This document shows, in pieces, positions 14,879 through 62,180 of a DNA stretch of 64,000 bases (positions are counted from its first letter, which is position 1; every line of letters starts with the position of its first letter). A program made the translations under genes and the position numbers. The notes beneath the pieces were generated by a model. That model saw only the letters and a list, made by a program, of their open reading frames with translations, had not been told where the DNA came from and did no database searches. This stretch comes from a virus (Duplodnaviria > Heunggongvirae > Uroviricota > Caudoviricetes): the IMG/VR virus record IMGVR_UViG_3300046047_000103. The stretch is one strand, 5' to 3'.

Positions 14879-15298
14879 TTGATGGTCACGATCTTGTATC
14901 CCCGGACGGCGAAGGGGCAGATGCTTGCCCAGATGGCCTATGCGATGGGTGGACGGGCTGCCGAGGAGATCTTCACGGGGACGTCGACCACAGGTGCAAG
15001 CAATGACTTCGAGAAGGCCACGCAGATCGCCAGGGACATGGTGACGAAGTACGGTTACGGATCTGACACCGGGCTTGCAGCGTGGTCATCTGATGACAAG
15101 ATGATGTCAGAATCAACCAGATCTGCCATTGACCGGGAGGTGATCACCCTGCTGAATGATGCCATGGCGACCGCACGGAGGGCTATCACCGTGAACAAGA
15201 CAGTGCTGTCAGATCTTGTTGGCAGGCTGGTCGAGCATGAGACCATCAACGGATCAGAGCTTGATGGCGTGATCGCCAAGGTGTCCGCGGTGGATTGA
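14879..15298 (+). CDS. ftsH: FtsH protease C-terminal fragment. It lacks the AAA and HEXXH parts.
   Basis: VTILYPRTAKG...MGGRAAEEIFTGTSTTGASNDFEKATQIARDMVTKYGYG aligns with FtsH KVTIIPRG...LGGRAAEEI..STGASNDI..AT.IAR.MVT. TTG/ATG start. An in-frame stop 50 nt upstream excludes a longer protein. Confidence 0.55.
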   Translation: MMVTILYPRTAKGQMLAQMAYAMGGRAAEEIFTGTSTTGASNDFEKATQIARDMVTKYGYGSDTGLAAWSSDDKMMSESTRSAIDREVITLLNDAMATARRAITVNKTVLSDLVGRLVEHETINGSELDGVIAKVSAVD

Positions 15299-15308
15299 TC
15301 TTGATATC

Positions 15309-15896
15309 ATGATGCTGTATGGAGGGGAAGGCGTCTTGAATGGAATCATAGTACTGGAAATTGCGGATCTGATGTGCTTGATGATTCTTCCGTCTAGCAT
15401 CGTGATGACTGCCGGTGCACGGCGTCGTGAAGCTGCGGAAGAGTCATTCTTGAAGTCATGGATCGAATTCTGGACGCTGACGAGGGTCATGGCGGTGTCG
15501 ATCATCATCGGCGCGACAGCGCTGTTGAGCGTCATCATTCTTGGACCGATCCATTCGACGTTCGACAATGATGTCAGTGACGGAGCCCGAACTGCTGCCA
15601 TCATGGGTGGCAATGACACTGAATTAGTGTCTGCGTTCAATAAGGACGATGCTGGCGATGATCGCGGCCAAGTGGACAGTGTGGCCGATCTTCTGAAGAG
15701 TCAATTGATCAAGGATGGGTTCATCGTTACCAACGTCAAGTGTGATCCGAAGACGGCAGACGCTGGTGACAAGGTCAGCTGCTCGGTGGATGGACGGATT
15801 CCGGTTCCGTTCGCACCTGACATTCAGATCTCATCGTCCGCATCAGCTCTGTCCGAGGTCAATGCGTCACATAAGACCAGTGCGTCCACATCTTGA
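15309..15896 (+). CDS. membrane-anchored secreted protein with a DUF4333-like two-Cys domain
   Basis: TM helix, then IVTNVKCDPKTADAGDKVSCSVDG (DUF4333-like pattern). Confidence 0.4.
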   Translation: MMLYGGEGVLNGIIVLEIADLMCLMILPSSIVMTAGARRREAAEESFLKSWIEFWTLTRVMAVSIIIGATALLSVIILGPIHSTFDNDVSDGARTAAIMGGNDTELVSAFNKDDAGDDRGQVDSVADLLKSQLIKDGFIVTNVKCDPKTADAGDKVSCSVDGRIPVPFAPDIQISSSASALSEVNASHKTSASTS

Positions 15897-16043
15897 TGTC
15901 CGATAAGCATTGGAATAACAGTAGGGCATTCTCAGTCAATGGACGCGATCTGATTCCAGATGACAAGTAGCTCTTCAAGTTGCATCCGTCGCAGATCTGC
16001 GATATTTTAGTAACGTCAAGTAATCTTATAGGGAGGAAATTCC

Positions 16044-16616
16044 ATGCCGTCATTCTTAACCAAGAAGAATTCGTTCATCGGAGCGGTCATCATTGTAGTC
16101 ATCGTCGTCTTCGTCGGATTCTTCCTCGCCGCGCAGGGCGCTAAGAACTCCGCCATCAAGCAGGAGAACATGATCGAGCGCGAGCAGTCTAATGTCCAGA
16201 CGATCGTGCAGAAGCGTGTTGATGCACTCACTGAGCTCATCAACACCGTCAAGGCGTCTAGCAAGTTCGAGCAGGATACAATCACCAAGCTCACTGATGC
16301 TCGCAGCAAGGCGAAGACCGGTGATATCGAGGGCAGCGCTACCGTTCTTCAGGCGACCGCGGAAGCGTATCCAGATCTGAAGAGCATTGACCTGTTCTCT
16401 CAGGTGAACCAGGAGACCGTCACCATCGAGAATCAGCTGTCGAATTCAAGGCAAGCGTATAACACGGCCATCCGCGACTACAGGAATAAGACGCAGACCT
16501 TCCCGAACAGCAGTCTGCTTGCAATGGCAGGGTACACTGCGAAGGACTACAAGCCGTTCACGGCTAATAGCTCCGCGCAGGACTACGATCCGTCATCTGA
16601 CAATCTCTGGAACTGA
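16044..16616 (+). CDS. lemA: LemA family membrane protein
   Basis: N-terminal TM. VDALTELINTVKAS...AYPDLKS...TENQL..R.AYN.A.RDYN...FP matches the LemA family. Confidence 0.8.
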   Translation: MPSFLTKKNSFIGAVIIVVIVVFVGFFLAAQGAKNSAIKQENMIEREQSNVQTIVQKRVDALTELINTVKASSKFEQDTITKLTDARSKAKTGDIEGSATVLQATAEAYPDLKSIDLFSQVNQETVTIENQLSNSRQAYNTAIRDYRNKTQTFPNSSLLAMAGYTAKDYKPFTANSSAQDYDPSSDNLWN

Positions 16617-16688
16617 TCACATACTGCCGGCACAGTCCGGCACTCATCATTAAGACCGTGTCTATGTTCTTAAGGAAAGAAGACGATC

Positions 16689-17510
16689 ATGTCCTTCCTC
16701 TCTCGGGGAGTACTTGGTAAGCTCAAGGGTCGGACGTTCCTGATCCTGGTGGCCATTCTCACAGGTCTTATCATTCTGACGACGATCAACGCCGTTCTTA
16801 TCAACATGTGGAAGGATCATGACAGCGAGGTCAGGAGTAAGATCATATCTGGTCTCTCCGTGACCACGGCCAAAGATCTTGGCTGGCAGGTGAAGACCCA
16901 GGCGGGCAATCTTGTCGTTCAGGGTAAGGTCACGATCCCGAAGGATCAGTGCGCCAGGTTCAATGAGATGGACGGATCATACTGCGCCGCATCCGTGACG
17001 AAGACCGAGGAGATCTATACCCGTCATGAACGCAAGTATGATTGCGGGGCCGATGCTCATCCGAGGACTTGCACTGAGGTCTATTGGTCATGGGATCTGG
17101 CCGGATCGTGGTCAGATCAGGCAAGCAATGGTGTGATCCTCGGCAAGACGCTCCCGTATTCATGGCTGCGTGCAAGTGAAGACAGAGTGGATCCATCCGT
17201 CATTGGTATCAATGGATGCAGATTTAGGTACTGCTATGAGGGATCTGGCATCAGATACTCATACAAGGCCGCTCCGGGGAGGTATTCAGGGGTCGCTTAT
17301 CTTACATCTGACAGTGATGGCCTGTCAAGCTTCAACGGATTCGATGAAGATGAGACCGCGGATGGAGCGAAGAATGCAGCCCAGCACCCGTCTGTGATTC
17401 CCGACGTCGTGTTCTGGATCGTTGAGTTCATTCTGATGGCAGCTGCCAGCGCTATTGGATTCACCGTCGTCAGGAATGACCTTGATGACGGTGCAGACAA
17501 TGATTTCTGA
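16689..17510 (+). CDS. membrane protein with a Cys-rich extracytoplasmic domain
   Basis: N- and C-terminal TM segments. Downstream of lemA. Confidence 0.5.
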   Translation: MSFLSRGVLGKLKGRTFLILVAILTGLIILTTINAVLINMWKDHDSEVRSKIISGLSVTTAKDLGWQVKTQAGNLVVQGKVTIPKDQCARFNEMDGSYCAASVTKTEEIYTRHERKYDCGADAHPRTCTEVYWSWDLAGSWSDQASNGVILGKTLPYSWLRASEDRVDPSVIGINGCRFRYCYEGSGIRYSYKAAPGRYSGVAYLTSDSDGLSSFNGFDEDETADGAKNAAQHPSVIPDVVFWIVEFILMAAASAIGFTVVRNDLDDGADNDF

Positions 17511-17732
17511 TCTCACCAGTCATCTTCAGATCCAGCTATGCGCAGAAGCATAGACCCTACTGCCATTCTGAACGCAATCAGATCGGTCATGCGCTGGAAA
17601 GCGCGATCTAGTATGACGTTACTTCTTGAACGCTGTTGCGTCTTCAGATGCCAGATCTGTCATCATTGCCTTGACGGCGTGTCTGTCGTCAAGGCATGTT
17701 ATCATTGATGTATCCAATCATAATGGGAAGGC

Positions 17733-20507
17733 GTGAACATGGCATTGTCTACACTGTCCAAGGCTAACACCGCGGTCACCGGTCATAAGACCGTAGGGTT
17801 CATGGGTAGTACGATCAGCAAGCATACGATGACGTTCAGTGAGGACGTCATCCAGATGATCGTCCAGCAGTTGACGGATCTTTACAGTGATCCCATTGCT
17901 GCGACCGTGCGTGAGACCATATCGAACGCGATCGATGCGACCCTGCTGGCGAGGGAGCGGGGTGAGGATGCTCCAGATGTGGACGTGTCGACCCCATCTG
18001 CGTTCAGCCCCACGTTCACGGTGGAAGATCATGGCGTGGGCATGACGAGTGACCAGATCTACTCCAACTTCGCTGACTACGGCAATTCGACGAAGATCGA
18101 TGACATGACCGCAACGGGATCTAAGGGTCTTGGAGCTAAAGCGCCATTGGCCTACACGACGACGTGCGTGGTGTCGACCGTGAAGGATGGTCATAAGATC
18201 ATCCTCACCCTGAATCGTGGTGAGAATTCGAACGAGGCCGAGACCATCTTCGATGGTGATGTTGATGAGCATAATGGTACGAAGATAGAGATCCCGGTCC
18301 GCGCTGAGGATGCGGACAAGTTCCAGGAATGCATCAACAAGTACAAGATGAATGCAGACGCGAGCATCCCCCTGCGGATTGACGGTGAGCCGGCTTACAA
18401 GCAGTTCAATGAGATATGGTCGAAGCTCATCGACTTCCCGATCGCGAAGGACGCTGAGGGCAAAGACATCTATGGCACTCTGTACGTGAAGAAGTCTTAC
18501 ATCCGCCAAGCGTTCAAGGAATGGAGAGATCTTGTCAGAGCAGCCAGTAACCACGATTGGTCGACTGAGGACAGGAACAACATTGCAGAGATAACCTCGG
18601 TGTCGCTGATGGGCTGGAACTATGAGATGCGGGCCGGTCAGTATTACTACACGAAGAACGAGTTCTTGGTCAGGATAGCACCTGGCGTCGTCGACTTCCC
18701 TCCGTCTCGTGATTCGATCAAGCGGAATGACCGTCTTGACAGCCTGCTCGACGCTATCAGAGACGGCATGAAGATCAGGCCGTATGCCCCTGATGAATTC
18801 ACGGAGGAGTTCCCGGCTGCCGTGGCGGAGATCTGGGGATCGATATCCCCGGATGAACGCATCGAGGTTCTTGACCAGATAGCAGATATGGACTTCAAGA
18901 TGGACACCACTGCACTCATGAAGGTCTGGCCTGACGAGGTGAAGCTTTACACTGATGATTATGATGGGAAGTACTTCCGCGCGATTCTCGGATTCAACAT
19001 TCCGTACTCGACGACCTTTCCCATGATATCAAGTTCATTCATCTTCAGGAACAATTCGATGGCAGACAAGACGGAGTCACCGTTGTCCACATTCTCGATC
19101 CATGGGACGTCAGTGCGGAACATCAACATGCTTCTGAACAACTCTGCCGACGATGAGATCAATGATGACAAGACATCTGAGGCGCGTGCTGATGAGATCA
19201 ACGGTCTCTTCCGTGACGATGATGTTCTCGAAGATTGCTCTAAGCTGATCTCTGTCAGAATCGGTTGGATGAAGAAGCACGTATCACTGTTCGCGAGCGA
19301 TTACGCTTCGAACTCATGCCTGACCATCATCAAGGGCAAGTTCGAGGGCAGCAAGTCGTACAGAAGGCTGCGAAGGTACATCAAGTCGGATCAGATCAAC
19401 CATTCATCAAGACAGATCTGCTGCATCGTTGACGGGGATGTGGACGCTCACGACTTTGACGACATGAAGAAGTCCGCGGAGGCTAATCATGTCGAATGGG
19501 GTGGAGTCATCGACTGGGATGACGTGACGGTCAAGAGTAAGACTGTGAAGACTCCAGGCAAGAAGCAGGCCGAGAACGTTCCGGTCAGCGGATACCTGGA
19601 CGCAGCCGTGGGCAGCCCCCTCAGGCAGAGGTTCGCGGTGCTCCTGAACAGGAACGGTTCTTACCCCGACTTCAATGATACGCTTGATCTTCAGGATCTT
19701 AGAGACAATGATGGCACGGTGTGGATCTATTCCAGGAGCTGGGGGAATCGTGACGCTTGCATCTTGCTGACCGAGATGGTGAAGAACCGCGCCGTCGTTG
19801 ATGGAAAGCCGTTCGCTCTGATTAACGCCTCGGACCATGACCATGGACTGCGAGCAGCTGCCTTCAATGTCTTGTCAGGATATGACAAGATTTGGATCGT
19901 GGATGGTACTCCGAAGATCCCGCGCTACAAGGCTATGAAGGACGCTCACATCATCAAGTATGGTAGTGACCCTGGCTTAGCTATGAGCCAGGCTATACTG
20001 TCTGATGCTGACCATTGGTCTGACCTTGTCTATGAGTTCTTGTGTTCGACCGATCTGCTGACAGAGAAGTCGTCACTAGAGGCCAGGTTAATCAATCTGG
20101 CCGAGCAGATCACCGGAACCGTCAAGCATGCCAAGTCTTTTGACGCTAAGATGTACAAGGGCGTTCTTGACGTCATGCTGGAGGCGTCCAAACCTTACCA
20201 GTTCAAGCAGATCGTCGCCCCGTTGCTGAAGAATCCGCCTAAGAACGCCAAGGTGATGGAGGCGGCCAGGGAGCTGGCCTACCATTCCGAGCTTAAGTCC
20301 AAGATCCAGGATGACCAGTCTAACCTTGATGTCGTCATGGTGAAGTCCATGGTGACGACGAATTGGGGATGGGGATCATATGACATTCTCAAGGATCTCC
20401 CCAAGTTTGACCCCTCGACTTCCATGATCGCGCAGTCCATCAAGGAATGGTGGACTGGCTACGCGACCCCGATCTATAAGCATGCCGTCGCTAATTGCGG
20501 ATTCTGA
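17733..20507 (+). CDS. rIIA: rIIA-like protein with an N-terminal GHKL (Bergerat-fold) ATPase domain
   Basis: N box TVRETISNAIDA, G1 VEDHGVGMT and G2 GSKGLGAKAPLAY. 924 aa. A ~319-aa partner follows, as in T4 rIIA/rIIB. Confidence 0.55.
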   Translation: MNMALSTLSKANTAVTGHKTVGFMGSTISKHTMTFSEDVIQMIVQQLTDLYSDPIAATVRETISNAIDATLLARERGEDAPDVDVSTPSAFSPTFTVEDHGVGMTSDQIYSNFADYGNSTKIDDMTATGSKGLGAKAPLAYTTTCVVSTVKDGHKIILTLNRGENSNEAETIFDGDVDEHNGTKIEIPVRAEDADKFQECINKYKMNADASIPLRIDGEPAYKQFNEIWSKLIDFPIAKDAEGKDIYGTLYVKKSYIRQAFKEWRDLVRAASNHDWSTEDRNNIAEITSVSLMGWNYEMRAGQYYYTKNEFLVRIAPGVVDFPPSRDSIKRNDRLDSLLDAIRDGMKIRPYAPDEFTEEFPAAVAEIWGSISPDERIEVLDQIADMDFKMDTTALMKVWPDEVKLYTDDYDGKYFRAILGFNIPYSTTFPMISSSFIFRNNSMADKTESPLSTFSIHGTSVRNINMLLNNSADDEINDDKTSEARADEINGLFRDDDVLEDCSKLISVRIGWMKKHVSLFASDYASNSCLTIIKGKFEGSKSYRRLRRYIKSDQINHSSRQICCIVDGDVDAHDFDDMKKSAEANHVEWGGVIDWDDVTVKSKTVKTPGKKQAENVPVSGYLDAAVGSPLRQRFAVLLNRNGSYPDFNDTLDLQDLRDNDGTVWIYSRSWGNRDACILLTEMVKNRAVVDGKPFALINASDHDHGLRAAAFNVLSGYDKIWIVDGTPKIPRYKAMKDAHIIKYGSDPGLAMSQAILSDADHWSDLVYEFLCSTDLLTEKSSLEARLINLAEQITGTVKHAKSFDAKMYKGVLDVMLEASKPYQFKQIVAPLLKNPPKNAKVMEAARELAYHSELKSKIQDDQSNLDVVMVKSMVTTNWGWGSYDILKDLPKFDPSTSMIAQSIKEWWTGYATPIYKHAVANCGF

Positions 20508-20582
20508 CGGCAAGGCGTTTTCATTCCGTCAGCCCAATGATATAATGAGAAGTGAGCAAGTACATAAGATGGTAAGGAGAAG

Positions 20583-21542
20583 ATGATGGCAACTGTAACC
20601 AGTCTGTCCGGGAACTATAACACGCTGAACAAGGAGTACGACGAACTTCACGGCGCGCTTACTCTCGATGACGGGACTATGAAGACGTTCACCCTGCAAG
20701 GAGGTGGTGACCGCACCGAGGAATTCGATTCCATCGTCAAGGGCATCGATGAGGGTGTAAGCAATGCTGAGCTTGCTGAACTCATCTTGAAGGCGTCGGA
20801 TAAGATCGGCATCGTCGAATCCAGGATCTCATCGAATCTGGAGTCGATCGGATTTGATGATCGTCTGACGAGAAGCGGCAACCGCATCTTCGTTGACGGT
20901 GAGCCGATCGACCCGGTTCTTGAGCGCGAGATCTTGTCCATTCTCAATCATGAGTCCGCGTCAAGCGAGGATGACAACTCCAGGAACTGGAAGTCCCTGC
21001 TCATGTTCGTCAAGGATCTGTACTCGAACAGTAATGAGTACGTCCGGGGGCAGCTGTTCTCATGGCTCAAGGCGAACTTCGAGTCTTCGTCCAAGGGCTT
21101 CACGCTGCTTGACGATGGACGGATCGTCGGGTACAAGGGCGTTGCGCGTACGGATGACGGAACGCCGCAGAGCTCGTACACCGGTCTTGGTCTGGTCAAG
21201 GAGAAGGGCGAGACCGAGTTCCATGAGGTGAATGGCCATATCCCGAATAAGATCGGCTCCACCATCTCCATGCCGCGTAGCCTTGTCACTAATGACCCTA
21301 ACATTGGCTGCGCTCCGGGTCTGCATATCGGAACATGGGACTACGCTTACTCATGGGGCAACGGGTATGTCCTCACGGTCGCGTTCAGCGCGTCTGACGT
21401 GGTAAGCGTCCCTGTGGACTCCGGGTTCAAGAAGCTTCGTGTCTGCAAGTATGAGGTTCTGAACGTCACCGAGACGCCGCATCATGACATCAGTCTTGAC
21501 TATGATGATGACGACGACGAATATGATGATGGAGAGGATTGA
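20583..21542 (+). CDS. rIIB: rIIB-like protein (tentative) with an acidic C-terminal tail
   Basis: 319 aa, immediately downstream of the rIIA-like gene. The size matches T4 rIIB (312 aa). No independent motif evidence. Confidence 0.35.
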   Translation: MMATVTSLSGNYNTLNKEYDELHGALTLDDGTMKTFTLQGGGDRTEEFDSIVKGIDEGVSNAELAELILKASDKIGIVESRISSNLESIGFDDRLTRSGNRIFVDGEPIDPVLEREILSILNHESASSEDDNSRNWKSLLMFVKDLYSNSNEYVRGQLFSWLKANFESSSKGFTLLDDGRIVGYKGVARTDDGTPQSSYTGLGLVKEKGETEFHEVNGHIPNKIGSTISMPRSLVTNDPNIGCAPGLHIGTWDYAYSWGNGYVLTVAFSASDVVSVPVDSGFKKLRVCKYEVLNVTETPHHDISLDYDDDDDEYDDGED

Positions 21543-21832
21543 TCTGTAGTCAAGATCTGTCATCTTTAATGGCGTGACTTCCTGATATCTTGCCAGTGGA
21601 AGTCACGCCATTTTTCATATAAGGAGCCTGTCATGGCATTACCTAGAAGAGCCCGTCCGAGAGACCTTGAAGAGTACTCCGAGCCTGCGCCTGAGGTCAC
21701 CAGCACACCGAGTCAGATCCATTTTGATCTACCATCATATGGGGTTCGAAGCCGATCGTCATCCCCGATCCGGAGAGACCTGACCTTGAGGAGCATAAGC
21801 CTTCCGCAGATCACGGATCTAAGCATGACGCC

Positions 21833-22375
21833 ATGAGGGAGCAGTCGAGACCGGCCGTGCAGCCACCTGACCGCAGTCCAGCGCATCCAGATCCGGCTGT
21901 GAAGGAAGCAGGGGCTTCAGGATCTGATACTAGTCTGATAGCATTAGCCTTCGCCGTGGCCGGTCTCCCTCCATTCGCCTTGTTCATCGTGGTAGCCGTA
22001 TGGCTACTGAGCGGGAACGTCATGACCGGTCTGTTCACGGCCGGGCTTCTGATCTTACTACTTCCGGTCATTGGACTGGCGATGGGTATCATGGCTCTTG
22101 TCAAGAAGGGTAAGATGACGGCGATGGTCGCATCCGCGCTCGCTATCGTGCTTTCACTGATCTCACTGTCCGCATTCGGGATCGTGTACATGCGCAGGAG
22201 CGAGATCGTATCTAATGTGGAGTCCGGGATAGCCGGTCTCGTGTCATCGCAGATGGAGAAGAGTCTTGCGGGTGGATCGTCCAATAATGGATCCGGTGCT
22301 ACAGGGTCGGACGCAGTCCCGCCAGCTCCGGTACCATCAGACGACCCGCTCTATGATGAGATCAGCAACAGTTAA
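21833..22375 (+). CDS. polytopic membrane protein
   Basis: About four hydrophobic helices, then a Ser/Gly-rich tail. Confidence 0.45.
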   Translation: MREQSRPAVQPPDRSPAHPDPAVKEAGASGSDTSLIALAFAVAGLPPFALFIVVAVWLLSGNVMTGLFTAGLLILLLPVIGLAMGIMALVKKGKMTAMVASALAIVLSLISLSAFGIVYMRRSEIVSNVESGIAGLVSSQMEKSLAGGSSNNGSGATGSDAVPPAPVPSDDPLYDEISNS

Positions 22376-22386
22376 GGAGTGATCAT

Positions 22387-22995
22387 ATGATACGCGCAAT
22401 ACAGAGGGTAAGATCCCATCACGGATGGACGGGCATGCTTGTACTTCTCGGATCTGGAATGGGTCTGCTGGCATCGTTCATGCTTTCACTGGAAGCATAC
22501 TGGCGGGCGCTGAACCCGACTCAGGTGTTCTCATGTGACGTGAACGCGAAGCTCTCATGCTCCAGCGTGGCCGCGTCATGGCAGTCCACGCTCTTGCACT
22601 GGCCGGGCGGTGGAGCTATCCCGAACGCATTCCTCGGTCTTGGCATCTTCGCCGTGTTCGTGACGATCGGCGTGTTCATAGCGAGTCACGCGACCATCCC
22701 GGAATGGATACTCTGGGGCTTCAGATTGGGGGTCGTCGCTGAGCTGGTGTTCTCGACCTGGCTGTTATGGGAGTCGATGTTCGTGATCGGTGCGATGTGC
22801 CCATGGTGCCTGACCATGGATCTTGGATCCATCTTGCTTGCATTCGGTGCGTTCAGGGACTGGGCGCTTGCGAAGGGCGATCGGCATCCCAGAGCGTTGA
22901 GATTCACGATCGGAATGGAATCCCTGCTGGTATCTGTTCTCATCTTGCTAGCATTCGCCTTCATTGTCGTCTTGCATTACTTTGGATCAATTTAG
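22387..22995 (+). CDS. vitamin K epoxide reductase (VKOR) homolog
   Basis: Loop Cys pair CDVNAKLSC (Cx7C) plus the active-site CPWC in a TM helix. Polytopic. Confidence 0.65.
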   Translation: MIRAIQRVRSHHGWTGMLVLLGSGMGLLASFMLSLEAYWRALNPTQVFSCDVNAKLSCSSVAASWQSTLLHWPGGGAIPNAFLGLGIFAVFVTIGVFIASHATIPEWILWGFRLGVVAELVFSTWLLWESMFVIGAMCPWCLTMDLGSILLAFGAFRDWALAKGDRHPRALRFTIGMESLLVSVLILLAFAFIVVLHYFGSI

Positions 22996-23057
22996 TTTTG
23001 CAAAGCCCGTGATCTTTTGATATGATCGTATCATGTTCAATATGAGAGGAGCAGTGA

Positions 23058-24305
23058 ATGGCAAGCGCATCTAAAGCGGCAGTCCAGAGGGTCACCCCGG
23101 CTAAGGCTGACATTGATTCAGAGTTGCGGAAGGCTAGAGACCTTGCTGGAGCTACGAGGAAGTCGTATGACGAGCTTGACGGGCAGGTGGCGAAGACTAT
23201 TAAGACCATCTTCGATGTCAAGTCAGATAAGGATTCGACCCAGCTTGAGCATGTCTATGAGTTGCATGAGAAGTATTCTAACCTCGGCGCTGATGCGCTG
23301 AAGGGTCTCATGCCGGATCTGACGAACGAATCGTTCAACGTCTCCATGAAGGAGCTTGACTACGGATCAGAGGCTAGCAAGGACATCTCCAAGACCCTTG
23401 CCAAGGTGTCTGACTCCCTGGCTGATCTTGATGCTTCCAAGATCAGCCACCGGCCTAGCAACGCCTTGCTCAGGGCGGTCTATGATCCCGTGCGCGGGTT
23501 CTTCAACCGGAGCAGGAAGGCCGGCGCCGTCATCGAGAGCTGCATGAAGACGCTGACGAAGTACGAGCTGTCCCTGATATCAGACATCGCTGCGTACAAT
23601 AAGGACAGGGTGAGAGCTGCGAAGTGCGCTGAGGTGGCCACCCAGCAGGCGGAACTAGCCGATGAGATCATCAAGGAGCTCCGCAAGCAGCTTGCTTCCA
23701 TGACGTTCGACGAGTCCAACATCGATCTGAAGAATGCGATCGAGTCGGAGGTGCTTGCCACGCTTGAACGCAGGAAGACCGATCTGCTTGAGATCGCCAC
23801 CGGCCAGGCTACATACATCGCGTCCATTGATCTGCTCTCGAAGACGCATTACAAGATTCTTGAGATCGTGAAGAGCACGAAGAACACGGCTGTCATCCAG
23901 TTCCGTTCCGCGGTCCAGGTCGCGCACGGGATCTATGTCCAGGAGACCGCTCGCAAGGCTGTACTCACCACGAACAAGGCAAGCTCTGATCTTGACATGG
24001 ACAATGCGGTGAACTTGAAGGAGTCCGTTAAGAACATCAGTGATGTCAGTCATGTACTGCATGACAACATTGATTCCATGTCCGCAGCGCTGAACACGGT
24101 TCTGGAAGCCCATGACGCATTCAAGAGTGCTGAGGCGTCATCTGCCGACGTGGCGAGGGACGCTGCCGAGAGAGCGCAGAAGCAGCTCCGTCTCATGAAC
24201 AAGAAGCTGGAGCAGTCGAAGATTCTTGACGATACGAGAAACGATCTGCTGGCTAAGATCACCTCGTCGTCACATGAAGATGCGGCGGATGGTGATGTCC
24301 AGTGA
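23058..24305 (+). CDS. TelA/KlaA-like coiled-coil protein (tentative)
   Basis: 415 aa, all-helical and coiled-coil rich. The resemblance to TelA is weak and recalled from memory. Confidence 0.35.
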   Translation: MASASKAAVQRVTPAKADIDSELRKARDLAGATRKSYDELDGQVAKTIKTIFDVKSDKDSTQLEHVYELHEKYSNLGADALKGLMPDLTNESFNVSMKELDYGSEASKDISKTLAKVSDSLADLDASKISHRPSNALLRAVYDPVRGFFNRSRKAGAVIESCMKTLTKYELSLISDIAAYNKDRVRAAKCAEVATQQAELADEIIKELRKQLASMTFDESNIDLKNAIESEVLATLERRKTDLLEIATGQATYIASIDLLSKTHYKILEIVKSTKNTAVIQFRSAVQVAHGIYVQETARKAVLTTNKASSDLDMDNAVNLKESVKNISDVSHVLHDNIDSMSAALNTVLEAHDAFKSAEASSADVARDAAERAQKQLRLMNKKLEQSKILDDTRNDLLAKITSSSHEDAADGDVQ

Positions 24306-24408
24306 CCAAGATGCAGGAAGGCCCCTCCAGACGCGCGAGACTGCGTTCTAAACGCCGTTCCCATGTTGGATGCGTTTCCCTTCATAATGTGGCGTCTATG
24401 GTGTTAGC

Positions 24409-25035
24409 GTGTCGTCTGTCAATGGAGGAAGGATCATGAAGCATAGTGGAGTGATCAGTGAGAAATGGTGGTCAGTTCTTGACAAGAAGCGCGCTGAGAT
24501 GCGGTTGGCAGATAGTCAGCCGGGTGATCATCCAACGGACAATGACCCCGATGTGTCCAGCGAACGATTTGATCAGAAAAGAACGCTGGACGATCTTATC
24601 CAGGAGCTGCAGTCCATCAAGTACAAGAGGTACGATGGTGACGGCACTGTTCCAGTGGCCATCGCGTACCGTGATGATTCAGATCAGATCTCCATGGGAG
24701 CTGTTCTGGTTGACTGCAATGATGCTGACAGTCAGGTCATTCTGTCGGCAGATCGTCAGAACACGGTCATTGACGGCCTTGCGTCGAATGATGATTCCAG
24801 GTATGATGACGATGATGAAAGCATGACTGACCGGGTCATGAGGGTGGCGAAGGCTATCCATTCTGACGATATTGGAACGATCAATCACGCCAGGGCTGCT
24901 TATGACGAGTCCGTGTACACGGCTGCCAAGATAGCTGACGGTCTTGTCGAATCTACGCTTGAAGACTACCCGGACACTGACGAGGGTTGGGATGCAGCCG
25001 TTGCTTCCGCCATTCAGATCAACGGTGATCAGTGA
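24409..25035 (+). CDS. hypothetical acidic protein
   Basis: 208-aa ORF. Confidence 0.45.
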   Translation: MSSVNGGRIMKHSGVISEKWWSVLDKKRAEMRLADSQPGDHPTDNDPDVSSERFDQKRTLDDLIQELQSIKYKRYDGDGTVPVAIAYRDDSDQISMGAVLVDCNDADSQVILSADRQNTVIDGLASNDDSRYDDDDESMTDRVMRVAKAIHSDDIGTINHARAAYDESVYTAAKIADGLVESTLEDYPDTDEGWDAAVASAIQINGDQ

Positions 25036-25056
25036 TGGTCCAGTGAGGATGTCGAG

Positions 25057-25698
25057 ATGCAAGATCGTAAGTGTGAGGGTTGCTGGAGAAGAATAATGAG
25101 AAGAACATTCAATGATGAGAATAAGGTCCAATCAGTCGTAGACGGTCTTAAGATCAGGCCGATAGCGAATGGATGGTTGAAGAGCAGGGCTGTGGACAGG
25201 CTTGCCCTCAGTGAGGACGCTATCGATGCGTACTCCGTGCAGGCGAGGAACGTGAAGACGTACACGATGAAGTCGACGTATGAGGACATCACCCCTGAAC
25301 GCAGATGGGCGATGGCGTCGACCATCCGTAGGAGCCCGGGTCCGTTCGTCGCAAGGCTTGGTAGGGAACTGGCCGCTGCCGCGTTCCTTGAGAAGCCGGC
25401 CGCCATGCGAGTCGAGACGATCACGACTGAAGACATGTTCACAGATGAAGACGAAGATGAAGCATTCGCTCTTCATTATGATGAAGGATGGGAAGATCGG
25501 GTGAATGACAAGTTCACTGGAGAGATATCCGTCATCATCGATATGGAAGACTCCCCGCAGAGTGATGTAGATCTGATGGTAAGATGGTTGAAGGACACGG
25601 GGGCATACAAGCTGTTCGATACCGTTGATGGACCTAAGGCGTCTTATCGTGTCCATAGGGTGAGATCAACGGTCAGCGAGTATCTTCCATTCGACTGA
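25057..25698 (+). CDS. hypothetical protein
   Basis: 213-aa ORF. Confidence 0.45.
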   Translation: MQDRKCEGCWRRIMRRTFNDENKVQSVVDGLKIRPIANGWLKSRAVDRLALSEDAIDAYSVQARNVKTYTMKSTYEDITPERRWAMASTIRRSPGPFVARLGRELAAAAFLEKPAAMRVETITTEDMFTDEDEDEAFALHYDEGWEDRVNDKFTGEISVIIDMEDSPQSDVDLMVRWLKDTGAYKLFDTVDGPKASYRVHRVRSTVSEYLPFD

Positions 25699-25707
25699 GG
25701 AGGTCAG

Positions 25708-26109
25708 ATGTCTTCAAAGAATGCTAGACGCAGGCGCCGGCAGGATCTTATGAAGCGGCGTGAGCAGAGAAGGGAACGGGCGGAGCGTGAGATCGCCGCT
25801 GGAAAGAAGCGAGCATTGCTGGCAAGTTCTGGCGATGATAAGCCCGTTGATGATCAACCGGTAGTACAAGCGGTGAAGACGGCACCGGACAGACGATCAG
25901 TCAAGCGAAAGGTCGACGTGAAGATGCAGCAGGACATCAAGGATCTTGCCGGGAGACTACGGAAGCAGAACGCTGAGGATCAGCATGCTGCAAGCAGGAA
26001 GAACTCATCTGCGTCCAGATCTCGCAAGCAGGTCGTGGTAAGAATCATTGCTGTCATCGCGGCGGTGGCCACGTTAGGAATGTTCATCGTTCCGTCACTG
26101 CTGCTTTAG
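25708..26109 (+). CDS. basic protein with a C-terminal membrane anchor
   Basis: Arg-rich N-terminus and a C-terminal TM (VRIIAVIAAVATLGMFIV). Confidence 0.4.
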   Translation: MSSKNARRRRRQDLMKRREQRRERAEREIAAGKKRALLASSGDDKPVDDQPVVQAVKTAPDRRSVKRKVDVKMQQDIKDLAGRLRKQNAEDQHAASRKNSSASRSRKQVVVRIIAVIAAVATLGMFIVPSLLL

Positions 26110-26129
26110 TATGATCGGGGGATCATAGT

Positions 26130-27071
26130 TTGCGCATATCTTACACAACAATGAGGCACATATTCCACCAGCATGCAAGACATAAGGCCACCCGGTCGGG
26201 TGCGATCATATCACTGAATCGTAGGATCTCGCTAGTTCTGATAGCGGCCGCTGTCAGCATCGTATCCGCACTGACCGTCATTGATCGTCGTGCGGATGGA
26301 GCGGCAGGACCAGCTGCTTACACGGCTACCAGGACATGGAAGGAACCGGCCGTCAACAGTGATAGCACCGAGGTCTCCAGATCTGGACGGCGGCGTGCCC
26401 TGTTGACCGAGTCCACGTCAACAGATGCCGAGGGAAGCTGGGATCTTGGAGACGAGGAAGATATCGGCAAGAATCTTCAAGATCAGGCTAATGATCAGTC
26501 GAAGGCTATTGAGATCAGGTCGCGGATGACGGGCGACATCAATGGATGGAAGACGCTTGACAGCACTGCGTACACGGTTGACAGCTGGGCTGAATACTCG
26601 TCTGATCTTGATGCTGCCAATGATCTTGTCCATGACGGCAGTCTTGACGTCTCCGCTCTGCAGTCCACGCTTGACGATCTGGAACGATCCCACGCCGCCC
26701 TCAAGACCGTTCCCAAGATCGCTCCGGCGGTCAATCAAGGGCATGCGTCTGTTCCGAGCGGGCCAACCGTCCCGGTCAATGAGATCCAATCATACGCTCA
26801 TGATAAGGTCGTCAGCCGCGGATGGAGTGAGGCTGACTTCACCGCTCTTGTCTGGTTATGGAATCGGGAGTCAGGATGGAATCCGAATGCGTCTAATGCG
26901 TCATCAGGCGCGTACGGGATACCGCAGTGTCTTGGCCATGCGGAGTGTCAGTCCGATGCGTTCAAGACTGACTACAGGGTCCAGGTCGACTGGGGTCTCG
27001 GATATATTGCCGGCAGGTACGGTACCCCGTCGACAGCGCAGCAGCACAGTCTGTCTACAGGATGGTACTGA
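26130..27071 (+). CDS. membrane-anchored transglycosylase-like (IsaA/SceD/Rpf-type lysozyme-like) domain protein
   Basis: ESGWNPNASNASSGAYGIPQ matches the ESGGNYNAVNPSSGAAGKYQ transglycosylase-like signature. N-terminal TM. Confidence 0.5.
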   Translation: MRISYTTMRHIFHQHARHKATRSGAIISLNRRISLVLIAAAVSIVSALTVIDRRADGAAGPAAYTATRTWKEPAVNSDSTEVSRSGRRRALLTESTSTDAEGSWDLGDEEDIGKNLQDQANDQSKAIEIRSRMTGDINGWKTLDSTAYTVDSWAEYSSDLDAANDLVHDGSLDVSALQSTLDDLERSHAALKTVPKIAPAVNQGHASVPSGPTVPVNEIQSYAHDKVVSRGWSEADFTALVWLWNRESGWNPNASNASSGAYGIPQCLGHAECQSDAFKTDYRVQVDWGLGYIAGRYGTPSTAQQHSLSTGWY

Positions 27072-27904
27072 TGGCCGGCGGTGAAGACATGGATGAGCGC
27101 AAGATCTTAAGGGTGCGGTTCGTGATACCGGTCAAGTACTATAAGGGATCAAACACGAATGATGTCCCTGCGGTGTCCAGGAGCAAGAGTCAGTGGCTGC
27201 GACGGTATGGTGAACAGGTCTGGTCTGACGCGATCAGGAGAGACTTCGGGATCGTGGCGGATGAGCCCGACGACTGGAAGAAGTCCAGTACGGCGTACTC
27301 ACCATCAGAGCAGAAGACCCATGACGCATTCACGGATCAGGATATGATCGTGGAGACCGCTTCCAATCTGGTGAAGACGCTTGAGGCCGATCATGAGAAC
27401 ATCCGTACGACCCTGCATGATGTGGACAAGAAGTCGTATGAGCATGCCGAGCTGAAGGCGCAGCTTGCTTCCATCGAGGATGATCTGAAGACGGCGAAGC
27501 GGCGTCTTCAGATCGAGTCGAAGCTGTTGACGAAGACGCGGAATGCGTTCAAGACTGCCCACAGCCGTCAGGACTCCAGAAGGTCAAGGGCGGATCGGAA
27601 GTCATACATCAAGGAGAAGTCCAGGCTGAATGAGGGCAAGCTCTTGTTCCCAGGACGGGTCACTCTCGATGTCAGATCTAATATCATAACAGCCCATGAC
27701 TTTGATGCTCCGAACTGCTGGCCGTCCGTGAAGCCATTGCAAGACGGGGGTACAGACACTTGCATCTTATGGCATGATGACAACAACAACTTCATCACGC
27801 GGACAAGCTTCTACGGCGGAGGCAAGGAAGACAGCAAGAACTATGTGATCGATATGATCGTCCGTGAGGACGATGGTGACGGATCAGATCCGTTCCGTGA
27901 CTGA
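27062..27904 (+). CDS. hypothetical protein
   Basis: 280-aa ORF with a coiled-coil segment. Confidence 0.45.
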   Translation: MVLMAGGEDMDERKILRVRFVIPVKYYKGSNTNDVPAVSRSKSQWLRRYGEQVWSDAIRRDFGIVADEPDDWKKSSTAYSPSEQKTHDAFTDQDMIVETASNLVKTLEADHENIRTTLHDVDKKSYEHAELKAQLASIEDDLKTAKRRLQIESKLLTKTRNAFKTAHSRQDSRRSRADRKSYIKEKSRLNEGKLLFPGRVTLDVRSNIITAHDFDAPNCWPSVKPLQDGGTDTCILWHDDNNNFITRTSFYGGGKEDSKNYVIDMIVREDDGDGSDPFRD

Positions 27905-28003
27905 TCATCCCTCTGACTGATTGCAGGTTGGATTCAAGCGATGGTACAATGATCATTGCATCATGTCCATATGGAATGATCCATCGATCTACAAGGAGTT
28001 TAA

Positions 28004-29407
28004 GTGTCTATAGAGTTCATAGGGGTGGCTGCTATCGGCGTCATTGTCTTTCTGCTCGTATGGTTCTTGGTCAGCAGGTACAAGACGCCTACCATCAATG
28101 AAGCGTACATCATATCCGGCTCGACGAGCCGTGACTCGGAGGGGAACAAGTCCGTCCGCGTTCTGAGAAGTCGTGGAGGCTTCGTCTGGCCCATCTTCAA
28201 CAGGGTCGTCAGCATCTCCCTCCGTTCTCATCAGATCAGCACTGAATGCGAGGCGATCTCCAAGGATAAGATCAAGATCAAGCTCAAGGTCGTCACCACA
28301 TTCAAGGTGAATGACACCGAGGAAGACATCCGTCTTGCCGGGCAACGATTCTCCAAGCAAGAACAGCTCATGGAACCGTACGTGAAGGAGATCATTGAAG
28401 GCTCCATGCGTTCGATCGTCGGCGGCCTCTCGGTCGAGAGTCTGTTGAGTGATCGTGTCGAGTTCACGAAGCAGGTCAGAACTGAGGTCGCGGATTCGAT
28501 TGAGATCCAGGGTCTTAGACTTGATACGCTTCAGGTCCAGGACATCAGTGACCAGACCGGTTACATCGATGCGCTCGGCGCTCCGCAGGAAGCATCCGTG
28601 AAGAGGGATGCGGCGATCGCGGAGGCGAACGCTAAGCAGGAAGCCCAGAAGGCGCAGATCAGTGCTGACAAGGTCATTGCCCAGAGCCAGAAGGATCTGG
28701 CATTGCAGCAGGCTTCCATCAAGGCCGAGACCGGTAAGGCAGACGTGAACGCAGATGCCGTCAAGAATCTTGAACAGCAGGCGCAGAACAGGAAGATCGC
28801 AGAGGCCGAGGCGCTGGCCGAGGCCGAGAACGTGAAGCTTCAGAGAGTCAGGCTTGAATCTGAAGTGAACACGAAGGCCGACGCTGAGAAGTACAGGCGT
28901 CGTACTGAGGCCGAGGCGCAGGCTGAGGTCACGAAGCAGAACGCTGCCGCCGATGCCGAGTCCACAAGACTGAGCGCAGAGGCGTCCGCCAAGGCTATTA
29001 AACTTGAGGGCAATGCGAAGGCTGCCGCCGTGAGGGCGCAGGGTCTGGCTGAGGCCGAGGCGATGAACAAGAAGGCTGAGGCGTACCGTAAGTATGGTCA
29101 GGCCGCATTGCAGTCCCTGATCATCGAGAAGCTGCCGGAGCTTGCATCTGCCATCAGCAAGCCGCTTGAAGGCGCGAAGATCACGTCGGTTGGTACTGAC
29201 GCGCAGGACAGGACGTCGGGCCTTGTCACCGATCTTGCCGCCAAGCTGCCGACACTCGTGAACACGCTCACCGGTGTGGATCTTGCCGGGTCGCTTCGGA
29301 AGCTCGCTAATGGTAAGGCTGATGCTGACGCCGAGGCGCCCTCAGACAGCGCTGAATCTAAGAATGATGCTGCCGACGCCCTGGTCGAGACGACAGATGA
29401 GAAGTAG
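28004..29407 (+). CDS. SPFH/band-7 flotillin-like protein
   Basis: N-terminal TM, an SPFH core, and a long Ala/Glu/Lys coiled-coil (EAEA repeats) typical of flotillins. Confidence 0.8.
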   Translation: MSIEFIGVAAIGVIVFLLVWFLVSRYKTPTINEAYIISGSTSRDSEGNKSVRVLRSRGGFVWPIFNRVVSISLRSHQISTECEAISKDKIKIKLKVVTTFKVNDTEEDIRLAGQRFSKQEQLMEPYVKEIIEGSMRSIVGGLSVESLLSDRVEFTKQVRTEVADSIEIQGLRLDTLQVQDISDQTGYIDALGAPQEASVKRDAAIAEANAKQEAQKAQISADKVIAQSQKDLALQQASIKAETGKADVNADAVKNLEQQAQNRKIAEAEALAEAENVKLQRVRLESEVNTKADAEKYRRRTEAEAQAEVTKQNAAADAESTRLSAEASAKAIKLEGNAKAAAVRAQGLAEAEAMNKKAEAYRKYGQAALQSLIIEKLPELASAISKPLEGAKITSVGTDAQDRTSGLVTDLAAKLPTLVNTLTGVDLAGSLRKLANGKADADAEAPSDSAESKNDAADALVETTDEK

Positions 29408-30024: not shown

Positions 30025-31083
30025 CTACTTCTTCTTAGATCTGCGATACGTTCGCGGCTTCGGGGGATTCTGCTCCCAGATCGTCTTCACATCGTCAAGC
30101 GTGATCGTACGCGGATCGTTACCATCAGGAAGCGAGATGAACTGGGCTCGTCCCTTCGGTGTCTTCTTGAACCCGATCCATGGACCCCGCTTACCGATGC
30201 CAGTGAAGTAGCCCTCACCGATCTGTCGGGGAAGCTTGATCTCGCTGAACAGCTTGCTAGCAGCATCGAATGTGATCGTGTTCTCATCGTATCCATCTGG
30301 TATCGTCATGTTCACGGGCTTCGCGCTCTTCACCGGTGCGCCCTTCGTGTTCAGCTTCACGGCTTGCACGTATGCGCCGTACTTACCGCTCTTCGCCGTC
30401 AACTGGTAGCCAGCGTACGGACCGTCAGACAGTACTCCAAGAACATGATTCACGATCGGCTTCGCGTCGGCTAGCAGCTTCTTGCAAGCATTCGGGGATA
30501 GGGCGTCTTCACTGGTGAGAGCATCATCGTCCAATCTCACGCTCTTCACGTACCCGTCATCATTCTTCTGACCCGACGGATCTTCCAGCCATGCTCCTGC
30601 CTTGTTCACTCTCACCACGTACCCGCCGTTCAGATGGATCTCGGACAGCGTGTTGACCTCATCCCAATTGATGTTCTTGGCAAGTCCGTTCACCTTGCGG
30701 TCAATGCCGTCGGATCCCTTCCACGCCGTGTCCAGGAACTCCTTCAACGTGATCTTCCCGGACGCGATGTCGTCAAGCTGATCTTCCATGTGAGCGGTGA
30801 AGCCGTAATCAATGAAGTCGGGCATGGTCGCATCCAAGATCTGCGCGACCTTCATGCCGGTCCATGTCGGGACCATGGCCTTACCCTTCTTCTGGACGTA
30901 CCCGCGCTTCTGGTTAACGGTGACAAGATTCGCATACGTGGATGGCCGGCCGATGCCAAGCTCTTCCATCTTGGCGACCAGCTGCGGTTCCGTGTACCGT
31001 GGTGGCGGGGTAGTCGTATGGGTCTGTGGAGAGGCGTTCGAGATCACACACTCTTCCCCGACCTTGAAGTCATAGTCTGTCAT
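30025..31083 (-). CDS. topA: DNA topoisomerase IA, C-terminal cistron
   Basis: PPPRYTEPQLVAKMEELGIGRPSTYANLV. Its ATG overlaps the upstream TGA (TGATG) and is preceded by AGGAGGG. Confidence 0.8.
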   Translation of the reverse strand: MTDYDFKVGEECVISNASPQTHTTTPPPRYTEPQLVAKMEELGIGRPSTYANLVTVNQKRGYVQKKGKAMVPTWTGMKVAQILDATMPDFIDYGFTAHMEDQLDDIASGKITLKEFLDTAWKGSDGIDRKVNGLAKNINWDEVNTLSEIHLNGGYVVRVNKAGAWLEDPSGQKNDDGYVKSVRLDDDALTSEDALSPNACKKLLADAKPIVNHVLGVLSDGPYAGYQLTAKSGKYGAYVQAVKLNTKGAPVKSAKPVNMTIPDGYDENTITFDAASKLFSEIKLPRQIGEGYFTGIGKRGPWIGFKKTPKGRAQFISLPDGNDPRTITLDDVKTIWEQNPPKPRTYRRSKKK

Positions 31084-32504
31084 CAGTCCCTCCTACCGTC
31101 GTCATAGACCTTCAGGAATCCTGGGTCATCTATTCTTGTACTTGCCGTCGTGAAGACAGCCTTGCCGTCAGTTGACGTGATCGTGATCTTCTTCGTCACT
31201 CCACGGGCCGGATCCATCTGACTGGCCACGCTTCTCCTATAGACAAGATCGTACACGTCCCCGGCCTTGTCGTCGAATGCTGATCCGCCCGTCATCCTAC
31301 GGATCTTGGATGGGGCATAGAACACCCCGGTCGCCTCATCGATCACGGGACGGATGCATTCATGGCCCTCCTGCGCGTTCTTCGACTTTGACTTGTAGAC
31401 AATGGGCTTTGCCGGCATCTTGCCTCCATACTGCTTCCTGATGATAGCCCTGGCTGCATTGATCGCCTCGCTGGCCATTGCCGGGCTGTCCGTCCTGGAG
31501 TACGTCTGGTACGTGTGCTCGAAGAGCTGCTGGGCGATCGTCATAGATCTGCTTGCGGACAGTCCTAGCAGGCTTCCAACATTCTGCTGGTATGATGACG
31601 TGGTGTACGGGACGGGTGGACGTCTGGCGTACGGTCGTTCCGTGATGTCCGTGATCGTGTACGCTAATGTCTTCAAGTCGCTGACGGCCTGTTGCAGATC
31701 TTTACCTAGAAGGACGATCTTCCCCTTGTTCTTCAGCTTGCCGTCAGCCGTGAAGTCGCCGGATCCAGCCATCTTCCTGCCATTCCATTCGACGAGTGAC
31801 GCTGTGATCTCATTCGGTCTGCCTTCATTGAAGACAGCGTCAATAGATCCGTACTCTGATGGGATGAATCTGATCCGCTCCTTCTCCCGGTCGACCACGA
31901 GACGAAGCGCCGGACTCTGCGCCCTGCCGCCGGACGTTCCTGACCCTACGGTCTTCCAGAGGTACGGGCTGACGCTGAATCCGAAGAGACGATCATACTC
32001 CTGACGGGCTTGTGCAGACTGTGCTTTCAAGGTGTCCACAGATCCGTACGCTTCAAGTCCGGCAAGCACGGCCTTCTTCGTGATCTCATGCCATGATGCT
32101 CGCCTGACATCCATGTGCTGCTTCTTCAGATCGTTCTTAAGCGAGTCGGCCACCTCGTATCCGATGAGTTCGCCGGCTTCATCAGGGTCAGTGCTGACAT
32201 AGAAGTGCTTCCAGCGGCCAGATCTGACCGCATCCCTGATCTCATTCCATTGCTTCCTGTTCTGCGGATCGTGGTCAAGCAGCCGATCATAACTGCCATC
32301 ACTGACATTGATCGAGTATGATCCGTAGATCTGCTTCTCATCCTTGGAGAGCTTCTTCGGATCCTTCAGCTCGAACATGAATCCCTTGGTAGGCATGATC
32401 AGCCATTTGGATCCCAGGAATCCGGAGATCTCCCTAGCCTTCGTCGGTGACTCTACGATCATCAGACCGCCGTCGCTTAGTATCGTTTTGATGTCATCAC
32501 TCAT
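31083..32504 (-). CDS. topA: DNA topoisomerase IA, N-terminal cistron (Toprim plus catalytic Tyr)
   Basis: IVESPTKAREI, DPDEAGELIGYEV, SGRAQSPALRLV and QTYSRTDSPAMAS (catalytic Tyr). Confidence 0.85.
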   Translation of the reverse strand: MSDDIKTILSDGGLMIVESPTKAREISGFLGSKWLIMPTKGFMFELKDPKKLSKDEKQIYGSYSINVSDGSYDRLLDHDPQNRKQWNEIRDAVRSGRWKHFYVSTDPDEAGELIGYEVADSLKNDLKKQHMDVRRASWHEITKKAVLAGLEAYGSVDTLKAQSAQARQEYDRLFGFSVSPYLWKTVGSGTSGGRAQSPALRLVVDREKERIRFIPSEYGSIDAVFNEGRPNEITASLVEWNGRKMAGSGDFTADGKLKNKGKIVLLGKDLQQAVSDLKTLAYTITDITERPYARRPPVPYTTSSYQQNVGSLLGLSASRSMTIAQQLFEHTYQTYSRTDSPAMASEAINAARAIIRKQYGGKMPAKPIVYKSKSKNAQEGHECIRPVIDEATGVFYAPSKIRRMTGGSAFDDKAGDVYDLVYRRSVASQMDPARGVTKKITITSTDGKAVFTTASTRIDDPGFLKVYDDGRRD

Positions 32505-62015: not shown

Positions 62016-62089
62016 CGGGTCGTAGCCCAGCTTGGTAGGGCGCCTCGTTCGGGACGAGGAGGCCGCGGGTTCAAATCCCGCCAACCCGA
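62016..62089 (+). tRNA. tRNA-Pro (anticodon CGG)
   Basis: Cloverleaf folded by hand. D arm gccc/gggc, anticodon arm cctcg-ttcggga-cgagg, T arm gcggg-ttcaaat-cccgc. One C.A mismatch in the acceptor stem. No encoded CCA. Confidence 0.7.
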
Positions 62090-62180
62090 CACGCCGTGGG
62101 AACACGATTGTCAACGACCGTGTTATCATGGATAACGCCGCGCTTCACGGAGCGTCGATAACTTAAGAATGCACCATCAA

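Follow-up and report, generated by a model that had tools for sequence, protein, structure and literature searches.

Bacterial VKORs replace DsbB, with the loop cysteines taking electrons from a thioredoxin-fold oxidase and a CXXC motif passing them on to a quinone (PMC13486548). The VKOR of Actinomyces oris re-oxidises MdbA in a process for which menaquinone is required (PMC5478893). Disulfide-generating membrane enzymes have so far been treated as cellular housekeeping. The only viral VKORs described to date are those of giant viruses that infect amoebae. A survey of NCBI recovered six viral VKORs, five from Mimiviridae giant viruses and one from a viral metagenome, with none from a phage and phages unmentioned; in the same study E. 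coli served to reconstitute the activity of a viral VKOR (Collins et al., PNAS 2026, PMC13486548). The gene analysed here lies at positions 22,387 to 22,995 of IMGVR_UViG_3300046047_000103, a 64-kb stretch of Caudoviricetes DNA that is called the window in what follows. The window is part of a genome of about 350 kb, and the gene inventory covers the window. As judged from sequence comparison, the gene probably encodes a stand-alone, catalytically competent VKOR of the actinobacterial type, with five transmembrane (TM) helices, that would re-oxidise a DsbA/MdbA-type enzyme via quinone on behalf of a lytic phage, from which we infer that the phage would manipulate disulfide formation.

The open reading frame (ORF), read from the sequence, encodes 202 residues. 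At JGI the identical gene is publicly called from M17 (186 residues; 22435 vs 22387), which drops the conserved basic cytoplasmic N-terminus. The longer version was considered the better one because the basic N-terminal extension (R-x-R...W-x-G) is kept in the homologs and because its start codon is preceded by a strong AAGGAG Shine-Dalgarno sequence. These sequences are public at JGI, where they are labelled 'uncharacterized membrane protein' and a Pfam tag was added automatically.

A preliminary description, made from the letters alone, had taken the product for a polytopic VKOR homolog with a Cx7C loop pair and a CPWC motif, and the present results agree. The protein matched the Pfam VKOR family (PF07884) with 98.2 bits (E = 5.4e-28) over profile positions 2-131 of 134, the gathering cutoff of this family being 27.5 bits. 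No other family, DsbB included, was matched in the Pfam scan at E <= 1, and NCBIfam returned merely weak, sub-threshold matches to VKOR equivalogs. CDVNAKLSC, at residues 50-58, is a true CX7C with its cysteine codons at 22534-22536 and 22558-22560, while CPWC occupies residues 138-141. C50, C58, C138 and C141 are the sole cysteines in the protein.

Conservation was assessed in an alignment of 25 homologs, 24-69% identical to the query, in which phage-linked and named actinobacterial proteins were mixed. The invariant columns were C50, S57, C58, V61, Q66, P79, N80, G84, W125, L126, C138 and C141, and S64 was conserved in more than 90% of the sequences. All four cysteines, on whose conservation among VKORs the preliminary description had staked its identification, were also invariant in a second alignment (n = 17). 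A profile built from the 25 sequences matched a Takifugu VKOR-like protein of solved structure (E = 1e-8) and human VKOR (E = 6e-6). In the profile alignment to the human enzyme, C50/C58 corresponded to C43/C51, C138/C141 to C132/C135, S64 to S57 and N80 to N80, with the loop pair set against human CDVGTAISC and CPWC against human CIVC. Human Y139 was not conserved, its place being taken by D145.

The AlphaFold2 model computed on the alignment (pLDDT 91.6, pTM 0.84) had helices at residues 12-42, 58-62, 81-99, 106-134, 139-162 and 168-199, of which the five long ones (the last counted as 177-199) are the predicted TM helices. When the model was compared with the PDB by Foldseek, the best 14 matches were all VKORs, either vertebrate or from Synechococcus, and included 6wv8 (TMq 0.63), the human structures 6wv3, 6wv6 and 6wv7, and Synechococcus 4nv2 and 3kp9; the matches that followed were non-significant. 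Seven lysines and arginines are located in the N-terminus and the two cytoplasmic loops vs two in the external segments, so by the positive-inside rule the N-terminus is inside and both cysteine pairs are therefore extracytoplasmic. The topology prediction that had been proposed as a check was thus consistent with a VKOR of five helices, and the active-site cysteines are predicted to face the extracytoplasmic side, as in characterised VKORs. The CPWC motif had been called intramembrane; it is present, but at the outer end of TM4 and not deep within the membrane. Because the chain ends five residues past TM5, there is no fused thioredoxin domain. On the strength of its sequence and predicted structure, which have all the defining features of the family, the ORF encodes a genuine VKOR-family protein. 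Since the predicted catalytic apparatus is intact, we infer that the protein is catalytically competent.

The assignment of the gene to a phage is strong but not absolute. The window was 100% identical over 20.6 kb to the JGI contig Ga0455797_000015 (349,703 bp, five samples). The VKOR gene stands in a closely spaced, same-strand, membrane-associated block made up of rIIA, rIIB, a small ORF, a protein with three TM helices (3-TM protein), VKOR and TelA (Table 1). The window also encodes the large subunit of a class Ib ribonucleotide reductase, a primase, an RNA ligase, a CCA-adding enzyme and a DnaX-like clamp-loader subunit, together with a membrane-anchored CHAP hydrolase and a transglycosylase, and it contains seven tRNAs and many ORFans. 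No capsid, portal, terminase or other virion gene was seen in the 64 kb. The rII genes, primase, RNA ligase, tRNAs, ORFans and large syntenic relatives make the context that of a huge phage, in keeping with the earlier view that the VKOR is phage-encoded.

Table 1. Positions in the window of the VKOR gene, its signals and motifs, its neighbours and the candidate clients of the enzyme.
Feature	Position	Strand	Basis
VKOR-family gene, 202 aa, 5 TM, stand-alone, without thioredoxin domain	22387..22995	+	ORF (ATG at 22387, stop ending 22995), Pfam, AlphaFold2, Foldseek
Shine-Dalgarno AAGGAG, 7 nt 5' of the VKOR ATG, overlapping the stop codon (TAA 22373-22375) of the preceding gene	22374..22379	+	Sequence
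Codons of loop pair C50-x7-C58 (CDVNAKLSC), predicted extracytoplasmic, predicted partner-facing shuttle cysteines	22534..22560	+	Invariance, alignment to human C43/C51
Codons of C138-P-W-C141, outer end of TM4, predicted quinone-facing active site	22798..22809	+	Invariance, alignment to human C132/C135
rIIA-like ATPase, phage marker	17733..20507	+	phrog_612 E = 3.9e-43, Pfam HATPase_c_3; conserved beside VKOR in L002, L005, L006, L010
rIIB-like protein, phage marker	20583..21542	+	phrog_609 E = 2.4e-29; PF26926 Phage_T4_rIIB on identical JGI gene
3-TM protein, 180 aa, Cys-free, ending 11 nt 5' of VKOR	21833..22375	+	ORF; companion of VKOR in relatives
TelA-like protein directly 3' of VKOR	23058..24305	+	Pfam TelA E = 8.2e-17; same place in L002, L005
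Candidate client: membrane protein, 273 aa, N- and C-terminal TM helices, exposed six-Cys domain	16689..17510	+	Cys pairs 88/99, 119/128, 177/182
Candidate client: membrane-anchored transglycosylase, two exported Cys C267/C273 (IPQCLGHAECQ)	26130..27071	+	phrog_12661, TM and Cys positions

VKOR orthologs with 30-70% identity were found on phage-like contigs of 545 kb (L002), 420 kb (L005), 310 kb (L006), 214 kb (L013) and 161 kb (L014) and on shorter fragments; L005 and L006 are IMG/VR viral genomes. Local BLAST showed that the order rIIA, rIIB, 3-TM protein, VKOR, TelA is common to the window, L002 and L005, and that rIIA also adjoins VKOR in L006 and L010. The block of a second subclade (L010, L013 and L014) consisted of signal peptidase S26, an FtsH-like protease, a membrane protein, VKOR, a MoxR-like AAA protein and DUF2201. 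Homologs of the 3-TM protein were located directly 5' of VKOR in L005 (5002-5934) and L010 (7066-8004, with a 4-nt overlap with the VKOR start), and a positional equivalent was present in L002 (8850-9947). The protein has a long, disordered, low-complexity N-terminus, is free of cysteine in all relatives and has no family assignment. The GC content of the VKOR-bearing loci ranged from 35 to 62%. Because the orthologs occur with conserved neighbours on contigs of such diverse size (161-545 kb) and composition, their sequences imply long retention under selection. Scans of IMG/VR with rIIB and TelA profiles for relatives that lack VKOR returned just the contig already known, and megablast of the 6-kb region against 50,697 GenBank phage records gave no match.

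Among 5.8 billion proteins a profile search gave 443 matches, with scores of 234-311 bits for the phage clade and of about 170-190 bits for cellular proteins. In a rough neighbor-joining tree, which has no support values, most of the phage-linked VKORs grouped in one clade that is separate from the cellular VKORs. The VKOR of L006 was placed among the cellular sequences, perhaps because VKOR was acquired a second time, or as an artefact of composition. The closest cellular homolog was about 41-46% identical. The sole match in 185,579 species genomes was on a 3-kb contig (L007, JAISKS010000075.1) of a Bifidobacteriaceae metagenome-assembled genome, with 46% identity and a pta-like gene beside it. 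A Bifidobacteriaceae host is not claimed, as this VKOR stands in a housekeeping context and has no specific affinity to the phage clade in the tree. The GC content of L007, 33.5%, is unusually low for Bifidobacteriaceae, and the assignment of the contig to its bin may be doubtful.

The window, and the related loci examined to a distance of about 10 kb from VKOR, were scanned by motif for an exported CxxC protein of the DsbA, MdbA or thioredoxin-like kind, and no such protein was found; the scan returned the VKORs themselves and a few opposite-strand ORFs that were taken as spurious. The gene immediately upstream (21833..22375) was considered as a thioredoxin-like partner and rejected, since its product has, in every relative, three TM helices, a disordered N-terminus and no cysteine. 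Because a partner is neither fused to the enzyme nor encoded nearby, it would probably be the MdbA/DsbA of the host, or else be encoded at another place in the phage genome.

Two proteins of the window are candidate clients of the enzyme. The preliminary description had spoken of Cys-rich membrane proteins encoded nearby; the immediate 5' neighbour has no cysteine at all, but a six-Cys protein is encoded about 5 kb upstream and a two-Cys transglycosylase 3 kb downstream. The gene of the six-Cys protein directly follows a LemA-family gene, and the exposed domain of the protein is about 200 residues long. It was assigned to no family in Pfam or PHROGs, and there are 139 cluster representatives. 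Its homologs gain and lose cysteines pairwise (88-99, p = 4e-8; 119-128, p = 5e-10), a statistic that is confounded by shared ancestry, and the sequence suggests up to three disulfides. Both cysteines of the transglycosylase are kept in the L005 ortholog (48% identity), and their Cx5C could form a disulfide with a regulatory or structural role. The transglycosylase also has a FIVAR-like region, and its conserved CLGH(A/S)EC motif lies inside the lysozyme-like domain. The case for these two proteins as VKOR clients, drawn from their cysteines, is suggestive only.

The mechanism that we favour would operate as follows. The VKOR would insert into the host cytoplasmic membrane during infection, and the loop pair C50/C58 would accept electrons from a reduced extracytoplasmic oxidoreductase of the DsbA/MdbA type, most probably that of the host. 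C138/C141 would receive the electrons next and hand them to a quinone of the membrane, probably menaquinone. The resulting re-oxidation would keep the oxidative folding of exported proteins going while the phage takes over the cell, and plausible clients would be phage-encoded proteins of the envelope whose cysteines are paired, for instance the two candidates above. Several observations weigh against this mechanism: 1) the scan for an exported CxxC partner, which covered the window and about 10 kb around VKOR in the related loci, was negative, 2) the membrane protein immediately adjoining VKOR is without cysteines, 3) the evidence on clients is weak, as numbers are small and the co-occurrence statistics share the confounding already mentioned, and 4) the source samples appear to be gut-associated and anaerobic, so that the quinone supply may be limiting.

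The absence of a protein redox partner near the gene would also be expected if the VKOR acted mainly on the quinone pool and the membrane redox state, within the rIIA/rIIB/TelA/flotillin/LemA block, to keep the membrane energised or to counter membrane-targeting abortive infection. The conserved synteny with rIIA/rIIB and TelA, the genes for Band_7/flotillin, LemA, FtsH-like, ClpB-like and signal peptidase proteins near VKOR in relatives, and the proposal that giant-virus VKORs serve lipid remodelling and not protein folding (PMC13486548) all point in this direction. However, the loop cysteines C50/C58 are invariant, and in characterised VKORs these mediate electron transfer from a protein partner. 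Neither a gamma-carboxylase-like epoxidase nor a desaturase is found among the neighbours, PADLOC gave no defence or counter-defence match among ten proteins of the block, and a shared function is not established by gene proximity. A primary role in membrane redox therefore seems unlikely. It is likewise quite improbable that the pathway is self-contained, with a DsbA/MdbA-like partner encoded elsewhere in the genome of about 350 kb that would make the phage independent of the host disulfide machinery. The part inspected amounts to about 64 kb of that genome, and the relatives do duplicate host envelope functions, in that they encode signal peptidase S26 and FtsH-like proteases. The negative CxxC scan, in the window and in the related loci, argues the other way. 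In Actinobacteria, moreover, vkor and dsbA-like genes are often adjacent, for example Rv2968c/Rv2969c of M. tuberculosis, and no such adjacency was seen here.

The remaining alternative is that the gene does not belong to a phage, the contig being mis-assigned and the VKOR that of a bacterium or a megaplasmid, or that it is a decaying passenger without function. The lack of capsid, portal and terminase genes in the window would be compatible with mis-assignment, and there is a precedent in MT835738, a GenBank 'UNVERIFIED' Bacteriophage sp. record with a VKOR match that resembles a high-GC bacterial chromosome. Against this, the rIIA/rIIB-like genes, primase, RNA ligase, tRNA array and density of ORFans indicate a phage, the relatives are IMG/VR viral genomes of 310-420 kb, synteny is kept over 35-62% GC, and even the closest cellular homolog is distant at about 41-46% identity. 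Decay is opposed by the invariance of the catalytic residues and by the position of most phage-linked copies in one clade of the rough tree. A misplaced or defunct gene is thus very improbable, and re-oxidation of a DsbA/MdbA-type enzyme by a functional phage VKOR was retained as the preferred interpretation.

The VKOR is surrounded by membrane and proteostasis genes (14879-29407), which comprise an isolated 139-residue Peptidase_M41 (FtsH C-terminal) fragment, LemA, rIIA/rIIB, TelA and Band_7/flotillin. Related phages (L008, L010, L012, L013 and L014) add full-length FtsH-like, ClpB-like, signal peptidase S26, MoxR-like AAA with DUF2201, and YkuD proteins. The cluster looks like a phage-borne envelope-maintenance toolkit. 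As a broader and rather doubtful extension, phages of 160-545 kb that infect gut Gram-positive, probably actinobacterial, hosts might carry an envelope-proteostasis toolkit in which VKOR supplies the oxidative folding that an anaerobic host lacks or loses. The toolkit would, on the same tentative footing, be made up of VKOR, signal peptidase I, FtsH-like and ClpB-like proteins, flotillin, LemA, TelA and rIIA/rIIB. If this were true, disulfide formation would be under phage control, for instance for lysis or cell-wall enzymes or for membrane integrity in a long infection.

The preliminary description had remarked that a VKOR, which replaces DsbB in actinobacteria and cyanobacteria, hints at the host group, and this is reasonable. 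The named cellular matches were all Actinomycetota (Actinoplanes, Streptosporangium, Isoptericola, Cellulomonas, Krasilnikovia and Nanopelagicales). The nearest cultured phage relatives of rIIA were Streptomyces phages, and those of the transglycosylase were actinophages in 156 of the 158 matching records. The CHAP domain instead points to Firmicutes phages, its nearest cultured phage relatives being those of Staphylococcus, Enterococcus and Streptococcus. For NrdE the nearest relatives were mixed and not informative; it was discarded as a host marker, with about equal similarity to the enterobacterial, Erwinia-phage and actinophage proteins. Motifs resembling Shine-Dalgarno sequences were found 5' of at least 38% of the crudely called genes of the window vs 6% at random positions, and because they are frequent a Bacteroidota host is argued against. 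A Gram-positive host is well supported, and a member of the Actinomycetota is likely.

Some other features of the window were noted. Promoter and terminator scans remained at background level and were given no weight. In the tRNA array (62016-63879) ARAGORN predicted, beside six ordinary tRNAs (two Pro, Asn, Ser and two Leu), a tRNA of undetermined identity with the four-base anticodon actg at 63070-63147 (+); this may be a tRNA resembling frameshift suppressors, or an artefact of the prediction. A bacterial-type topoisomerase I is apparently split into two adjacent ORFs on the - strand, 31083-32504, with a product of 473 residues (Toprim and Topoisom_bac), and 30025-31083, with one of 352 residues (Topoisom_bac); in the 545-kb relative it is a single gene of 910 residues (L002 15829-18561). 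An AAA / nSTAND3 protein (STAND NTPase) is encoded at 40836-41894 (+) and has a counterpart in the same relative (L002 1828-3069, -). STAND NTPases are better known from host immunity.

Within the curated phage resources and the literature that were searched, a phage-encoded VKOR is not yet described. PHROGs v4 contained no family that matched the protein, and BFVD contained no phage entry with a significant match, the sole VKOR-annotated match being a protein of the giant Yasminevirus with a weak E = 7e-3. A tblastn search of 50,697 GenBank phage records returned just three unannotated human-fecal contigs. MT835738.1 (L015) and MT835553.1 (L016) are human-fecal GenBank records labelled 'UNVERIFIED: Bacteriophage sp.' with VKOR matches. 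MT835738 was rejected as a phage VKOR, as its GC content of about 70% and its NAD-epimerase-like and ComEA-like neighbours make it look like an actinobacterial chromosome fragment, and MT835553 was not counted as one. A protein-fold survey of huge phages contained no mention of VKOR or disulfides, and a literature search on phage VKOR, phage-encoded DsbA, and huge phages with Bifidobacterium or disulfide genes yielded nothing relevant beyond the giant-virus paper.

What is new is the kind of genome in which a known enzyme family is found, and not a mechanism. With an intact VKOR retained in a clade of diverse huge phages, bacteriophages would join the viruses that encode redox machinery, and oxidative protein folding would become one more host function that is duplicated in huge phages. 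The gene is compact, can be tested directly, offers a phylogenetic clue to the host and would come as a surprise to disulfide-bond specialists. If VKOR proved necessary for infection, it would mean that host disulfide capacity can limit exported phage proteins in anaerobic habitats.

The closest known counterparts are the stand-alone VKORs of actinobacteria, such as M. tuberculosis Rv2968c and the A. oris enzyme. These are likewise about 200 residues long, with five predicted TM helices and no fused thioredoxin domain, and they share the outward loop Cys pair and the CxxC of TM4; the named nearest relatives of the phage protein are Actinomycetota sequences of 30-45% identity. The phage clade differs from them in a six-residue insertion in an external loop (HWPGGG) that is absent in the cellular actinobacterial sequences. 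The phage copy also belongs to a separate clade in the rough tree and has rII, TelA and the Cys-free 3-TM protein as neighbours, with no dsbA-like gene adjacent.

The giant-virus VKORs (Fadolivirus, Yasminevirus and other Mimiviridae; PMC13486548) are also virus-encoded and have the conserved CXnC and CXXC. They differ in that they come from viruses of eukaryotes, are eukaryote-like, adjoin a gamma-carboxylase-like epoxidase-desaturase and were proposed to remodel lipids (PMC13486548). In that module VKOR is adjacent to a gamma-carboxylase-like epoxidase fused to a fatty-acid desaturase, and neither of these two domains was seen beside VKOR in the window or in any related locus. In the window the neighbours of the phage VKOR are instead rIIA, rIIB, the 3-TM protein, TelA, the transglycosylase and Band_7.

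The VKOR-thioredoxin fusion of Synechococcus (PDB 3KP9, 4NV2) resembles the phage protein in its four-helix catalytic core and fifth TM helix, with a Foldseek probability of 1.00. The Synechococcus enzyme continues after TM5 into its own periplasmic thioredoxin-like domain, whereas the phage protein ends there and would therefore need a separate partner. E. coli DsbB has the same job as is predicted for the phage protein, the quinone-linked re-oxidation of a DsbA-type oxidase by two extracytoplasmic Cys pairs in a helical bundle (PMC13486548). The two have no sequence relationship, and DsbB is a functional analogue of the phage VKOR and not a member of its family.

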